Shown: positions 2,794-63,501 of the stretch, piece by piece
Numbering within the stretch: position 1 is the first letter of the stretch
How the letters are laid out: the number at the start of each line of letters is the position of its first letter
Assembly (NCBI GenBank): GCA_045106775.1
Contig: JBGCFE010000041.1
Location: forward strand, 9,948 to 73,947
DNA: 64,000 nucleotides
Source: Halioglobus sp.
GTDB lineage: Bacteria; Pseudomonadota; Gammaproteobacteria; Pseudomonadales; Halieaceae
Direction: 5' to 3'
The notes under the pieces: model-generated
Seen by the model: the letters and a program-made list of their open reading frames with translations, nothing else
Databases searched by the model: none
Told to the model about the DNA's origin: nothing
Position numbers and translations under genes: made by a program

Positions 2794-4275
<1,482 letters not shown>

Positions 4276-10659: not shown

Positions 10660-11448
10660 TTACACACCGGACGCTACTACCTGTTTCTCCCGCCGGCGAA
10701 TCAACTCTCCCGCGAGCGCCATATACGCTTTTGACCCTCGAGAGTTTCTATCGTAGTACATCGCCGGCACGCCATGGCTAGGCGCCTCGGCCAAGCGGAT
10801 ATTCCTCGGCACGACTGTGCGAAAAACCTTATCACCAAAGTGTTCGTGAAGCTGCGCTGAGACCTGACTAGTCAGGGCATTGCGCGGGTCATACATCGTG
10901 CGCAGAATGCCTTCGATTTCTAGATCGCTCGCCGTAGATTGCGCTACACCCTGCACGGTTTCAATTAACGCAGTTAGCCCCTCCAGGGCAAAGTACTCGC
11001 ACTGCATAGCAATTAGTACGCCATCTGCAGCAACCAGGCCATTAAGCGTCAGCATGTTGAGTGAGGGTGGGCAGTCAATAAGTATGTAGTCATAGCTGGC
11101 TGAAACCGCAGCTAGCGCCGAACGCAGTCGACTCTCGCGGTTATCCAGCTCGAGAAGCTCTACCTCAGCAGCAGTTAAATCGCCATTCGCGGGCAGTACT
11201 TTGAAGCCGCCCTCTGGCACTTCGCAGGCAACGACGCTCACCTGAGCCTGATGTACCAGAACATCATATACACTCTGGGACACCGCGTACTTATCTATCC
11301 CGCAGCCCATGGTGGCATTGCCCTGTGGATCAAGATCGACCATCAGGACCCGCTGGCGCATCGCAGCCAATGAGGCAGCAAGGTTTACGCTGGTTGTTGT
11401 TTTACCAACGCCTCCCTTCTGATTGGCTACCGCTATTACTCTGGCCAA
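10660..11448 (-). CDS. parA: Chromosome partitioning ATPase ParA/Soj
   Basis: ANQKGGVGKTTT deviant Walker A; DLDPQGNAT; IDCPPSL. Confidence 0.97.
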   Translation of the reverse strand: MARVIAVANQKGGVGKTTTSVNLAASLAAMRQRVLMVDLDPQGNATMGCGIDKYAVSQSVYDVLVHQAQVSVVACEVPEGGFKVLPANGDLTAAEVELLELDNRESRLRSALAAVSASYDYILIDCPPSLNMLTLNGLVAADGVLIAMQCEYFALEGLTALIETVQGVAQSTASDLEIEGILRTMYDPRNALTSQVSAQLHEHFGDKVFRTVVPRNIRLAEAPSHGVPAMYYDRNSRGSKAYMALAGELIRRREKQVVASGV

Positions 11449-11527
11449 TGAACACTGCCTCTGCTTAATTTGTGGTTCTACGTAGTGAATCGAAGCCCGA
11501 GACGAGCCGGTTACCTATTCACAATTA

Positions 11528-12229
11528 TTATAGACTGTATGTGGTTTGTGGCATCAGCGTAACCAGATGCCGCGCTTCATCAAGACCCGGTATGTTCAGC
11601 GAGTGCACGGCGCCGGAAACTTTGTCCTGTGGGTTCTGCTTAGCCAATAAATCTTCAAGTGCCTTTAGCTCTGCACTTGGCTCTGCTCCCTTCATCGCCA
11701 GACACTGGCCGGAGGCATCGAGTAAATGCCGGCAGCCAATGTACATATCGCTAAGCGTTGCAAATGCCCGGGATGTAATAGCCTTAAACTTAGCGGGAGA
11801 CTCGAAGGTCTCGACGCGGGATTGATGAACCACCATGTTATCCAACGCCAGTGCAGTTTTCACCTGAAAAAGAAAACGGGTTTTTTTGCCATTGCTGTCC
11901 AGCAGATGAAACTCACTCTCGGGCCGCATAATGGCCAGAGGCACACCAGGCAGGCCTGCACCCGAGCCAACATCGAGACACCGATCTGCATGATAGAACG
12001 GGAGTACTGCCAGGCTGTCCAGCAAGTGTCGAGTGATCATTTGCGCCGGCTCTCGCACAGCCGTCAAGTTGTAAGCCTTATTCCACTTACACAGCAATTC
12101 AATGTAACCAATAAGCAGAGTGTACTGATGGGCACTGGGCGAAATGCCCAGCGCTTGGCAACCGGTTGCCAGACGGCTTTCGAGTTCGCGAATACTATCC
12201 GACAAGTTGACGTTGCGCGTCTGCACCAT
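11528..12229 (-). CDS. rsmG: 16S rRNA m7G527 methyltransferase (GidB); start uncertain, overlaps mnmG end
   Basis: [38 protein letters not shown] motifs. Confidence 0.95.
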
Positions 12230-60207: not shown

Positions 60208-62991
60208 ATGGCTTCTACTGCTAACGTTTCGGATAAGACTGCAGGGCAGGGTTCGAAGAATGCCCCCATCGTTCTCGTCGATGGTTCCTCCTATGTTTAT
60301 CGTGCCTATCACGCGCTGCCCATGCTCACGACCTCCAGCGGTCAAAATACCGGTGCTGTTCGCGGTGTAATCAGTATGTTGCGCCGTTTGGTGGTGGATT
60401 ATCCAAACAGCCCCATTGCGGTGGTATTCGACGCCAAAGGCAAAACCTTTCGCGACGAGATCTACGATCAGTACAAAGCGCAGCGTCCGCCCATGCCGGA
60501 TGAGCTGCGCGAACAGATCGACCCCATACATGCGATTGTTAAAGCAATGGGGTTGCCTTTTCTCTGTGTGCCCGGCGTTGAAGCTGATGATGTGATTGGG
60601 ACACTCGCGCAACAGGCCAGCGAGCAGGGTAGGGACGTGATTGTTTCAACCGGCGATAAGGATATGGCACAGCTGGTCAACAAGCATGTGACCTTAGTGA
60701 ACACGATGACGGAAACAGTCTTGGATGAGCCGGCTGTAGAAGAAAAATTTGGTGTGCCGCCCAAGCTGATTATAGATTTGTTGGCGTTGATGGGTGACAA
60801 GGTAGATAACATTCCGGGCGTAGCCGGCGTAGGAGAAAAAACAGCATTGGGCCTGTTGCAGGGCATTGGTGGTCTGGACGACATTTATAAAAACCTCGAA
60901 AAAGTGGCAGAGCTTTCTTTTCGCGGTGCAAAAAAAATGGCACCAAAATTGGAGGCGGAAAAAGACAACGCCTACCTTTCTTACGAACTCGCCACCATCA
61001 AGCTCGACGTACCGCTAGAGGTAACGCCAGGATCATTAGAAAATGCTGAGCCGGATACGCAGGCGTTGGTCGATTGGTACACACGATTAGAATTTCGCGC
61101 ATGGCTCGATGATGCACTAGGGCAGGGCGGTTCAGCGGCAACACCAGCTTCGGGGGCCTCACCGGAAAAGCCGCCGGAAGTGGCGGTGAACTACGCCATA
61201 GTCACTGATCAGGCAGAATTCGAAGCTTGGGTAGCTCGGCTGGAATCTGCAGACTTATTTGCTTTCGATACAGAAACTACCAGCCTCAATTACATGGAGG
61301 CGCAAGTGGTGGGTGTGTCTTTCGCTGTTGCACCCGGCGAGGCAGCCTATGTTCCGTTTGGGCACGACTATCTTGGTGCGCCGGAGCAACTAAATCGCGA
61401 TGACGTGCTCGCCAGGTTAAAGCCTTTGCTAGAAGACGAAAACGCAGCGAAGGTAGGACAAAATCTGAAATACGATGCGAATGTGCTCGCCAACCACGAC
61501 ATTACTTTGCGAGGCATTCGTTTCGACACAATGCTGGAGTCGTACGTACTGGATTCAACTGCCACGCGACATGACATGGATAGTCTGGCTTTGAAATACC
61601 TGGGCCGCAAAACAGTTCACTTCGAAGACATCGCTGGCAAAGGCGCCAAACAGTTAACGTTTAACCAGATAAAACTGGAAGAGGCGGGGCCCTATGCCGC
61701 AGAAGATGCCGACATTACATTGAGCTTACATGAGGCGTTGTGGCCGAAGCTGCAAAAGCAGGGTGATTTACCTGCGGTTTTTAGCGAAATAGAGTTGCCA
61801 TTGGTTCCTGTGCTTTCGAAAGTGGAGCGCACTGGCGCTTTGCTTTCCCAGTCGATGTTGCATGCGCAGAGCGCTCAACTGGGTAAGCGGCTTGACGAGT
61901 TGGAAGGGGAGGCCTTTGAGTTAGCAGGCGAAGAGTTTAATCTGGGTTCGCCAAAACAAATTGGCAAAATTCTGTTTGAAAAACTTGAACTGCCTATTAT
62001 CAAAAAAACGCCCAAGGGTGCACCGTCGACGGCAGAAGACGTTCTGGTGGAGCTGGCTTTAGACTATCCGCTACCAAAGTTGTTGCTCGAACATCGCACG
62101 CTTAACAAGCTCAAATCGACTTATACCGATAAGTTGCCAGAAATGGTGAACCCGAAAACGGGGAGGGTGCATACCTCATATCATCAGGCGGTTGCTGCAA
62201 CCGGCCGCTTGTCATCGTCTGATCCTAACCTTCAAAACATTCCGATTCGAACGGAAGAGGGCAGGCGAGTACGCCAGGCGTTTATAGCGCCAGACGGCTA
62301 TCGCATCATGGCGGCGGACTATTCGCAGATAGAGCTGCGCATAATGGCGCACCTATCGCAAGACGATGGTTTGTTGCGTGCTTTCAAAGAAAACCAGGAT
62401 GTACACAAAGCCACCGCGGCAGAAGTGTTTGAGGTGAGTTTAGATCAAGTGTCCGGTGAACAGCGTCGCAAGGCTAAAGCGATTAACTTCGGCTTGATCT
62501 ATGGCATGTCTGCCTTTGGTCTTGCAAAGCAGTTGAACCTAGGCCGCAACGAAGCGCAGCAATATATCGATCGATACTTTGAGCGCTACCCGGGCGTTGC
62601 CGATTATATGGATTCGACCCGGGCGTTGGCGAAAGAGCAGGGCTATGTAGAAACACTGTTTGGCCGTCGCCTTTACCTTCCGGAAATAAATGCGAGCAAT
62701 AAAATGCGAGTGCAGGCAGCAGAGCGCACCGCGATTAACGCACCGATGCAGGGCACAGCTGCAGATATTATTAAAAAAGCCATGCTGGCGGTAAGCGACT
62801 GGTTGAACACCGGCGCAGCAGACGCCCGTATGATTATGCAAGTACACGACGAACTCGTGTTTGAAGTGGCAACAGGCCAGGCACAGCAGATAGCGGATGA
62901 CGTTTGTCAATTAATGTCAGGCGCGGCGCAGTTATCCGTGCCTCTGTTGGTCGAAGCCGGTATTGGTGATAACTGGGATGAGGCGCACTAG
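60208..62991 (+). CDS. polA: DNA polymerase I
   Basis: VLVDGSSYVYRAYH (5'-3' exo); FDTET (3'-5' exo); DYSQIELR; KAINFGLIYG; QVHDEL. Start set at ATG 60208. Confidence 0.98.
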   Translation: MASTANVSDKTAGQGSKNAPIVLVDGSSYVYRAYHALPMLTTSSGQNTGAVRGVISMLRRLVVDYPNSPIAVVFDAKGKTFRDEIYDQYKAQRPPMPDELREQIDPIHAIVKAMGLPFLCVPGVEADDVIGTLAQQASEQGRDVIVSTGDKDMAQLVNKHVTLVNTMTETVLDEPAVEEKFGVPPKLIIDLLALMGDKVDNIPGVAGVGEKTALGLLQGIGGLDDIYKNLEKVAELSFRGAKKMAPKLEAEKDNAYLSYELATIKLDVPLEVTPGSLENAEPDTQALVDWYTRLEFRAWLDDALGQGGSAATPASGASPEKPPEVAVNYAIVTDQAEFEAWVARLESADLFAFDTETTSLNYMEAQVVGVSFAVAPGEAAYVPFGHDYLGAPEQLNRDDVLARLKPLLEDENAAKVGQNLKYDANVLANHDITLRGIRFDTMLESYVLDSTATRHDMDSLALKYLGRKTVHFEDIAGKGAKQLTFNQIKLEEAGPYAAEDADITLSLHEALWPKLQKQGDLPAVFSEIELPLVPVLSKVERTGALLSQSMLHAQSAQLGKRLDELEGEAFELAGEEFNLGSPKQIGKILFEKLELPIIKKTPKGAPSTAEDVLVELALDYPLPKLLLEHRTLNKLKSTYTDKLPEMVNPKTGRVHTSYHQAVAATGRLSSSDPNLQNIPIRTEEGRRVRQAFIAPDGYRIMAADYSQIELRIMAHLSQDDGLLRAFKENQDVHKATAAEVFEVSLDQVSGEQRRKAKAINFGLIYGMSAFGLAKQLNLGRNEAQQYIDRYFERYPGVADYMDSTRALAKEQGYVETLFGRRLYLPEINASNKMRVQAAERTAINAPMQGTAADIIKKAMLAVSDWLNTGAADARMIMQVHDELVFEVATGQAQQIADDVCQLMSGAAQLSVPLLVEAGIGDNWDEAH

Positions 62992-63033: not shown

Positions 63034-63060
63034 GAACTTTTGGCAGGTAGCCCAGTCTTA
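63034..63060 (+). promoter_or_regulatory. sigmaE/AlgU-type promoter
   Basis: GAACTT-16 nt-TCTTA; the established consensus is GAACTT-N16/17-TCTNA. Confidence 0.75.
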
Positions 63061-63066
63061 TATTGC

Positions 63067-63189
63067 GTAGTGAGAGCTACATCCCTAGGTGGCTTATCTT
63101 CATGGGCCACTGCGAGTACGTCTCTATCTCCAGGAGACATTTTTGAATGCCCCGGCCGTTTTCCCTAGAAACTGCCGGGGTCTTTTTTT
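63067..63189 (+). ncRNA. Candidate sRNA at the Spot 42 / ErsA position downstream of polA
   Basis: Promoter immediately upstream, three short hairpins, strong terminator with U tract; no credible ORF. Confidence 0.65.
63150..63189 (+). terminator. Intrinsic terminator
   Basis: CCCCGGC...GCCGGGG stem followed by TCTTTTTTT. Confidence 0.85.
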
Positions 63190-63219
63190 CTCTGCTTTAT
63201 ATTTCTCCGCGCCGTTCCA

Positions 63220-63292
63220 GGTTTGGTTCGTTAGGCGGTTACCAGTCGCTCCACGGGATTCGCTTGGTGGTAACCGCCTAACGAACCAAACC
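63220..63292. repeat. Hairpin 1: perfect 25-bp inverted repeat with 23-nt loop
   Basis: GGTTTGGTTCGTTAGGCGGTTACCA (63220-63244) / TGGTAACCGCCTAACGAACCAAACC (63268-63292). Confidence 0.95.
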
Positions 63293-63342
63293 CTGATATC
63301 GAAGTACGTGCAAATCTGATGTAAAACACAAACCGAAGAAAG

Positions 63343-63358
63343 ACTGCCCGTAGGCAGT
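63343..63358. repeat. Small hairpin between the two long hairpins
   Basis: ACTGCC-CGTA-GGCAGT; on the minus strand the loop is c(UACG)g, a UNCG tetraloop. Confidence 0.7.
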
Positions 63359-63374
63359 GCTCCGCAGCGAGGCG

Positions 63375-63441
63375 CCGGCGCGTGAGACGGTGATCACCAA
63401 GCGAATCCCGTGGAGCGACTGATCACCGTCTCACGTGTCGG
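63375..63441. repeat. Hairpin 2: perfect 16-bp inverted repeat (22 bp with G.U on + strand) with 23-nt loop complementary to the hairpin 1 loop
   Basis: CGTGAGACGGTGATCA (63381-63396) / TGATCACCGTCTCACG (63420-63435); loop CCAAGCGAATCCCGTGGAGCGAC. Confidence 0.95.
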
Positions 63442-63501
63442 AGCCTAGAGTTCACTACCACCTCTGGGCCCTATTCACGCGTAAGTAATGAAAGCTTATG
63501 C

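Follow-up and report, generated by a model that had tools for sequence, protein, structure and literature searches.

The stretch of DNA analysed here (the window) comprises 64,000 nt of a Halioglobus sp. contig (GenBank assembly GCA_045106775.1, JBGCFE010000041.1, positions 9,948 to 73,947 of the forward strand). Near its right end polA on the + strand faces engB (yihA) on the - strand, and the intergenic gap between their stops, at 62991 and 63502, respectively, holds two large hairpins, A (63219-63293) and B (63370-63446), which carry the same 23-nt loop on opposite strands. With the spacer between them they form a doublet, and hairpins A and B together make up a single copy within a dispersed family of large palindromic units, extragenic and multi-copy. 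The gap is laid out as follows:

63034-63190, + strand: small-RNA-like gene, a neighbour outside the element, recognised by its conservation in relatives; left limit of the doublet region
63215-63297, - strand: unit A; stem 63219/20-63244 with 63268-63292/3, 26 pairs including a terminal G·T; loop 63245-63267
63298-63366, no strand assigned: spacer, with a small G+C-rich hairpin at 63343-63358
63367-63449, + strand: unit B; stem 63370/71-63396 with 63420-63445/46; loop 63397-63419 (CCAAGCGAATCCCGTGGAGCGAC)

A repeat search places the arms of a 55-nt inverted repeat at 63229-63283 and 63381-63435, complementary at 47 of 55 positions (85%) and separated by 97 nt. Every one of these figures agrees with an initial annotation of the window made from sequence, although the stems prove longer (25-27 positions) than it had noted. 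The stem of hairpin A consists of 25 perfect pairs (63220-63244 with 63268-63292) and a G·T pair on the - strand between 63293 and 63219, while that of hairpin B spans 27 positions (63370-63396 with 63420-63446) at 89% complementarity. The inner arms, CGTTAGGCGGTTACCA and CGTGAGACGGTGATCA, are mismatched at positions 4, 7, 12 and 14 (4/16). As the initial annotation also stated, and as can be read directly from the sequence, all four differences are compensated on the partner arm and the loops are identical. The outer 9-11 bp of the two stems bear no relation to each other; identity between stems A and B is 12/16 for the inner part and 15/26 overall, which is ordinary for doublets of this family. 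The loop, GTCGCTCCACGGGATTCGCTTGG, has only two copies in the window, at 63245-63267 (+) and 63397-63419 (-), both with 0 mismatches, where 0.01 matches would be expected by chance in 64 kb.

Both strands of the region fold well beyond what shuffling gives: z = -9.0 for the + strand and -9.4 for the - strand, and 0/200 shuffles do as well. On the + strand, the two-hairpin fold is calculated at -120.9 kcal/mol with RNA parameters and -72.3 with DNA parameters, compared with -107.3 (RNA) and -55.7 (DNA) for a single long hairpin, an advantage for two hairpins of 13.6 and 16.6 kcal/mol, respectively. The small hairpin within the spacer (63343-63358) resembles a terminator on the - strand only, where it reads ACTGCCTACGGGCAGT and then CTTTCTTCGG.

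Copies of the unit are found well beyond this locus. An exact scan with a 20-nt loop core, taking one genome per species, returned 10 loci, distributed among Halioglobus, Luminiphilus, other Halieaceae metagenome-assembled genomes (MAGs) and one Lysobacterales MAG, two of the MAGs having several loci each. A degenerate loop pattern matched at least 120 metagenome stretches of marine, salt-marsh and saline-soil origin. The same pattern gave 0 matches in viral contigs, and blastn gave none in a plasmid collection. The collected loci, 131 in all and cited below by their L numbers, contain at least 188-213 units whose arms are self-complementary and unrelated in sequence from copy to copy. When 192 units with full flanks were anchored on the loop alone, the median stem was 26 bp, and in 175 of them the stem began at the same offsets, giving a 23-nt loop.

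The stems of this family covary. Among 108 representatives of less than 85% identity, copies share 44% identity in the arms and 93% in the loop region, the latter value being inflated because the copies were retrieved via the loop; stem positions 7-24 display 4-6 pair types each. The 79 non-redundant units of an ungapped alignment (A1) have 95.1% of their stem cells paired, compared with 55.0% in 500 shuffles (0/500 reaching the observed value) and 37-47% when the partner arm is slid by 1-3 columns. The covariation score is 1.009 against 0.21 for the control, and changes on both sides are seen in 26 of 26 stem pairs. Sequence conservation is limited to the loop and a few adjoining pairs, the remaining stem being kept as base pairing only, in line with the initial proposal that stems are selected for pairing and loops for sequence. 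The central loop dinucleotide, left free in the search pattern, varies (AT 94, TG 31, AA 22, GG 14, and others), and a structure-aware search recovered a few copies whose loops are changed or larger, such as L009 1621-1717 and L010 4592-4673. A covariance model of the family finds only units A and B in the window, with no third unit at E < 1. Rfam gives zero matches at gathering score over the whole window, and at E <= 10 the region yields only sub-threshold matches to generic long hairpins (miRNA precursors). Literature searches returned only unrelated primers for the loop sequence and nothing for repeats in Halieaceae. The family has apparently not yet been described, with no account in Rfam or in the literature searched.

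The constraint on a unit is strand-specific. With the loop in its TCGCTCCACG..ATTCGCTT reading, the 2,808 stem cells include 41 G·T/T·G pairs versus 157 A·C/C·A (binomial p = 3e-17). Each A·C corresponds to a G·T on the complementary strand, so wobble is tolerated where the loop reads CCAAGCGAAT-NN-CGTGGAGCGAC. Just 5' of the stem, this strand also carries a short foot motif, usually C[G/A]AGG and less often GTAGG, so that the constrained form reads 5' foot, stem, CCAAGCGAAT-NN-CGTGGAGCGAC loop, stem 3'. From the family-wide asymmetry it follows that the working strand is - for A and + for B. The imperfections in the window agree with this rule, B having two G·T and one G·A on the + strand and A a G·T as its 26th pair on the - strand. 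The covariance model scores unit A at 85.4 bits on the - strand versus 33.7 on the + strand, and unit B at 80.7 bits on the + strand versus 27.3 on the - strand. Unit A reads ATCA-GGGTTTGGTTCGTTAGGCGGTTACCA-CCAAGCGAATCCCGTGGAGCGAC-TGGTAACC... on the - strand, with its foot TCAGG towards the spacer, and the foot of unit B, GCGAGG (63367-63372), likewise points towards the spacer. With feet inward and constrained strands opposite, the pair is a tail-to-tail heterodimer in the terminology of PMC3733652.

Doublets of this kind prevail in the family. Of 68 adjacent unit pairs, 55 have the arrangement seen in the window, 6 are inverted the opposite way and 7 are direct; 128 units are paired, and 33 stand alone away from contig ends. 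Start-to-start spacing ranges from 103 to 302 nt with modes near 115, 140 and 172 (153 in the window), and the spacers are moderately conserved and variable in length. The partners are unlike each other: their central loop dinucleotides differ in 20 of the 55 doublets, and arm identity between partners in 49 distinct doublets is 8-19/26 and never higher, which makes heterodimers the rule. The view that stem divergence disfavours collapse into one long hairpin, put forward in the initial annotation, is therefore upheld both by the conformer energies and by these partner arms. For heterodimers of REPs (repetitive extragenic palindromes), the same idea has been advanced as protection from SbcCD-type removal of long palindromes (PMC3733652).

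The units are extragenic, most of them near the 3' ends of genes. Of 56 classifiable elements, 24 lie between convergent, 26 between tandem and 6 between divergent genes; 65 further elements, about half of those in metagenome loci, are at contig edges. Lone units occur without bias in either orientation to the gene upstream (14 sense, 16 antisense), and this speaks against their serving as parts of host mRNAs. Canonical doublets start and end with GGTTTGGTTT-like sequences. In those of about 330 nt (L054, L011, L113, L047, L076 and L036), the 20-30 nt beyond the outer foot are often partly tandem-duplicated; this flank reads GGTTTGGTTTT.GCCAGCGG / CCGCTAGACTGA..., and some copies run on as short CCAAAC or CTGGC repeats. 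Clusters of 3-4 units, tandem or mixed, also occur (L008 335-820, L098 276-800, L041 672-930 and L110 5190-5600), in which about 100 nt of flank is repeated along with the unit in the manner of BIME-2 (a class of bacterial interspersed mosaic element, BIME) or of clustered REPINs (REP doublets forming hairpins). Their neighbours are housekeeping genes: fusA/rpsG, a TM2-domain gene, the phosphoenolpyruvate carboxykinase (PEPCK) gene and that of an AcrB-type pump.

EngB homologues assign the window to the Halieaceae. Comparison of the polA-engB spacer among relatives shows gain and loss and indicates that the doublet is dispensable and probably mobile. In six relatives with EngB 75-90% identical to that of the window (L131, L132, L133, L135, L136 and L137; the named relatives Halioglobus, Seongchinamella and Pseudohalioglobus fall at 75-78%), no unit is present in L131, L133, L135 (Halioglobus maricola), L136 or L137. 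The sixth, L132, retains a single decayed unit (33.5 bits) with uncompensated mismatches. The left arm of this unit (3212-3281) is A-like and its right arm B-like, the mismatches falling exactly at the A/B differences, and the sequence past it aligns to the reverse complement of the window spacer with a borderline score of 39 versus a best of 37.5 in 200 shuffles. Such a pattern would fit a past inversion across the two loops followed by deletion, a borderline case. In L135 (CP036422) a Peptidase_M90 gene (10871-11740) lies between engB and polA, showing that the convergent junction is not universal in the bacterial family.

A closer relative, X4 (about 96% identical in polA), has the doublet with 3 differences over about 267 positions. 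Two of these are in the spacer (63303 and 63306), and the third, 63374 G>T, restores pairing in hairpin B, where T-A replaces the G·A mismatch. The adjoining stretch of about 55 nt between hairpin B and the engB stop (63446-63500) differs at about 17 positions, a contrast that could reflect either constraint on the doublet or its recent exchange. Genomes carry the units by the dozen: in X4 the loops have a contig depth 15-33 times that of single-copy sequence, which points to about 48 units there. In runs X1-X4, contigs of all public runs end inside the loops (63394-63422 and 63233-63279), where short contigs from other copies pile up; the family is a systematic cause of short-read assembly breaks in abundant coastal bacteria. 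One clear case documents copying of a whole doublet: in a Halioglobus MAG (L001/L002), the entire doublet of about 323 nt, spacer hairpin included, occurs on two contigs at 84-92% identity with different flanks. L003 and L007 represent one locus in two genomes, the second unit being missing from L007.

The small-RNA-like gene to the left of the doublet (63034-63190, +) has GAACTT-N16-TCTTA at 63034-63060, which resembles a promoter for the extracytoplasmic-stress sigma factor (RpoE/AlgU), and then about 120 nt with a terminator hairpin and T-run (63150-63190) at their end. It is almost unchanged next to polA in L131, L132 and L133, the sequence diverging beyond the T-run, and it has no Rfam match. 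Its position corresponds to that of Spot 42 in E. coli and ErsA in Pseudomonas.

At three independent loci a unit is interrupted by an element of about 1.2 kb encoding an IS110-family recombinase (PF01548 + PF02371):

L082, about 790-1945: IS110-family element (DEDD_Tnp_IS110 + Transposase_20)
L102, about 1240-2400, - strand: IS110-family element (same domains)
L114, 1-1018: IS110-family element (same domains)

The junctions read ...CAGTCG-CT / IS / CT-CCACG..., placing the insertion at the CT of the loop and in the same orientation at all three loci. Homing of IS110-family elements into REPs, with a CT core at the insertion point, is known (PMC11208160, PMC12288879).

We consider the doublet to be a REPIN-like non-autonomous element recognised as a single-stranded hairpin, with A and B as its two halves, and give this a probability of roughly 0.6. 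A trans-acting factor would recognise the units as folded single-stranded DNA, the loop supplying sequence specificity and the stem supplying shape only, much as HUH/Y1 enzymes (REP-associated tyrosine transposase, RAYT, also called TnpA-REP, and the TnpA of IS200/IS605 insertion sequences) handle REPs and the ends of insertion sequences (IS). Recognition of the single strand may then lead to the copying or moving of whole doublets, and unlike stems within a doublet would avoid the one long perfect palindrome that the cell would delete. The copy in the window would have landed between the small-RNA terminator and the engB 3' end in the recent lineage of this genome. Single-stranded DNA and an enzyme of HUH/Y1 type are favoured by the combination of the foot motif, the opposite-strand architecture reminiscent of REP dimers and the lack of bias towards transcription orientation.

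Several results weigh against this interpretation. A search for a RAYT/Y1 transposase by the HUH...Y..NP motif found none in about 880 kb around units. Clustering of the 1,690 open reading frames (ORFs) within 2.5 kb of units gave only housekeeping genes and spurious ORFs that cross the repeats, and Pfam analysis of the genes by the clusters at L008, L098 and L110 identified elongation factor G, ribosomal protein S7, TM2, aldehyde dehydrogenase, PEPCK and AcrB but no transposase. Neither a target-site duplication nor a clean empty site was recovered among the compared loci. Described REPs reach only about half the size of the unit, whose conserved part is the loop, not the stem or a GTAG foot; this loop conservation is itself partly an effect of ascertainment. 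Tolerance of G·T pairs fits RNA as well as single-stranded DNA, and the near-identity of the doublet in the window and X4, amid heavy divergence of non-coding DNA, could signify host-level constraint instead of a selfish element. Tentatively, and as a clearly lesser possibility, the units may form a distinct, 'loop-specified' class of hairpin repeat, going beyond a merely large REP, in which the 23-nt loop, conserved from Halieaceae to Lysobacterales, is read by a putative, widely conserved partner while the stem is free to drift, and IS110 bridge-RNA elements have evolved to home into the loop. That partner could be either a non-RAYT enzyme acting on single-stranded DNA or an RNA-binding factor.

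Clearly less probable than the reading we prefer, and the foremost of its rivals, is a role in RNA, where the hairpins would serve the host as stabilisers of mRNA 3' ends, barriers to RNases, protein-binding motifs or small RNAs, and their dispersal would be secondary. The G·U-type asymmetry (157 versus 41) is what RNA constraint would be expected to produce, units are enriched between convergent and tandem genes, another copy of the family is present in a metatranscriptome contig (X18), and the doublet is nearly unchanged between the window and X4 where neighbouring non-coding DNA has changed; Di Nocera et al. make the same argument for many REPs (PMC3733652). Nevertheless, lone units lie sense and antisense to the upstream gene about equally (14 and 16), and since the constrained strands of a doublet point away from the spacer, any single transcript carries one sense and one antisense unit. 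There is also no T-tract past the stems and no Rfam family, six relatives have either no doublet or a decayed one at the corresponding locus, and 3 of 4 metatranscriptome assemblies cover the genes flanking L058 but not its doublet, albeit at low depth. A search for RNA runs covering the window itself found none. A more specific RNA mechanism, implied by the suggestion in the initial annotation that stem divergence preserves loop-loop pairing, would have both hairpins on one transcript with their 23-nt loops kissing and the unlike stems keeping them apart. The loops in the window are indeed perfectly complementary and the two-hairpin fold is better than the long hairpin by 14-17 kcal/mol, yet complementarity on one strand arises automatically because the same unit sits there twice in inverted arrangement. 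Partners are constrained on different strands, 20 of 55 doublets have unlike central dinucleotides, and 33 units are lone and 7 pairs are direct tandems, so that preserved loop pairing is not supported and we regard kissing loops as the least probable explanation of all.

Two further readings involve DNA rearrangement. A classical miniature inverted-repeat transposable element (MITE) derived from an IS, with terminal inverted repeats that a DDE transposase encoded elsewhere binds in double-stranded form, would account for a short, non-coding doublet that is bounded by inverted units, begins and ends in its canonical copies with GGTTTGGTTT-like sequences, and is duplicated as a whole within one genome. 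Recognition of double-stranded DNA, however, would conserve the sequence of the arms and not the pairing within each arm, and would not generate the G·T/A·C strand asymmetry; moreover, the two 'terminal repeats' of one element have unlike stems, neither target-site duplications nor a parent IS with these ends were found, and the sole IS seen, of the IS110 family, interrupts the units. We judge a classical MITE improbable, and although MITE-like ends came closest to the truth among the alternatives offered in the initial annotation, the doublets do not qualify as IS-derived MITEs. Its other alternative, an invertible segment (63284-63380) flipping by recombination across the identical loops, appears slightly less probable again. 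The loops do constitute identical inverted repeats of 23 bp, and the chimeric A/B unit of L132 with its reverse-complement spacer alignment, itself of borderline significance, is what inversion and subsequent deletion would leave. Against this, no recombinase ORF adjoins the segment, contigs of four runs contain the window orientation only (contigs drop rare variants), and the architecture recurs at unrelated loci with the stem type fixed relative to the side of the spacer, as fits a repeat family.

Other candidate identities for the hairpins were examined and rejected. A terminator scan found no intrinsic terminator at either hairpin, the family consensus past the stem being CCGNT... with no T-run. 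Hairpin A contains GTTAGGC and GCCTAAC, but in the order opposite to the 5'-RYYYAAC ... GTTRRRY-3' boxes of an integron attC site, and neither hairpin B nor the family consensus has this motif. A CsrA-type GGA loop occurs only in the GG variant, the commonest loop having AT; neither the sigma-54 promoter nor the integration host factor (IHF) consensus fits the loop; and a resemblance to the tRNA T-loop is superficial only.

The family is moderately interesting as a set of repeats and ordinary as an explanation of the polA-engB locus, where an eye-catching structure is explained by ordinary repeat biology and a locus-specific RNA mechanism is unneeded. More than 100 different stems around one loop nonetheless amount to a clean natural experiment on hairpin recognition, and should a trans-acting partner be found, it would represent the spread of a palindrome by an enzyme that reads the loop rather than the foot and stem. 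The IS110 element homing into the loop also offers a ready-made natural pair of bridge RNA and target.

Among known systems, REPs and BIMEs (Di Nocera 2013, PMC3733652; Quentin 2018, PMC6006769) are the nearest. They too are extragenic palindromes located mostly downstream of genes, with a purine-rich tag left unpaired on one strand at the hairpin's 5' foot, subfamilies distinguished by compensatory stem changes, and G·T pairs in their stems; most are inverted dimers 20-100 bp apart, often heterodimers of unlike stems, and tandem clusters are also known. Heterodimers, tail-to-tail dimers, G·T pairs and compensatory subfamilies have all been described for them (PMC3733652, PMC3116915), and many extragenic copies between convergent or co-directional genes are a hallmark of REPs that is found here as well. 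The differences are in size, conservation and association. The stem is 26 bp here compared with 6-13 bp in REPs, and the whole unit is about 75 nt compared with 20-40 nt, which is outside the size definition of a REP. The 23-nt loop is the most conserved part of the unit, whereas the loops of REPs, mostly 2-3 nt, are not their chief conserved feature. Current REP finders would overlook the family; one of them sets default limits of <=11 nt for the loop and <=32 nt for the palindrome (PMC12306157), which would exclude it. REPs are defined by a GT[AG]G foot (PMC6006769, PMC3733652), of which the foot here is reminiscent, though it is mostly C[G/A]AGG with GTAG in a minority (TCAGG for A and GCGAGG for B). 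The loop is conserved across families and orders, in contrast to REP families, which are usually specific to a species or genus. REP units flank a single-copy RAYT gene in an arrangement called a REPtron, and no RAYT was found with this family in the about 880 kb scanned.

REPINs (Bertels and Rainey 2011, PMC3116915) resemble the family in being inverted doublets with a less conserved spacer that are far commoner than singlets, in their frequent compensatory changes and in their tandem clusters. Here too the whole doublet appears to be the copied unit (L001/L002) and singlets look like decayed remnants (L132, L007). A REPIN, however, forms one long hairpin with its conserved ends paired, whereas the units here fold separately and partner stems are too unlike to pair. 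The subterminal hairpins of IS200/IS605 and other HUH substrates are comparable in the putative recognition of a hairpin on one strand by structure and a short sequence, with a free helix; those hairpins are located on the same strand at the ends of an element encoding the enzyme, while the units described here are on opposite strands and have no linked enzyme gene. Finally, REPs are likewise targets of IS110-family elements, and the insertion of IS621 and ISPpu9 at a fixed CT within a repeat (PMC11208160, PMC12288879) is matched here, the target of those elements being a short REP and that in the present family the single-stranded loop of a large hairpin.

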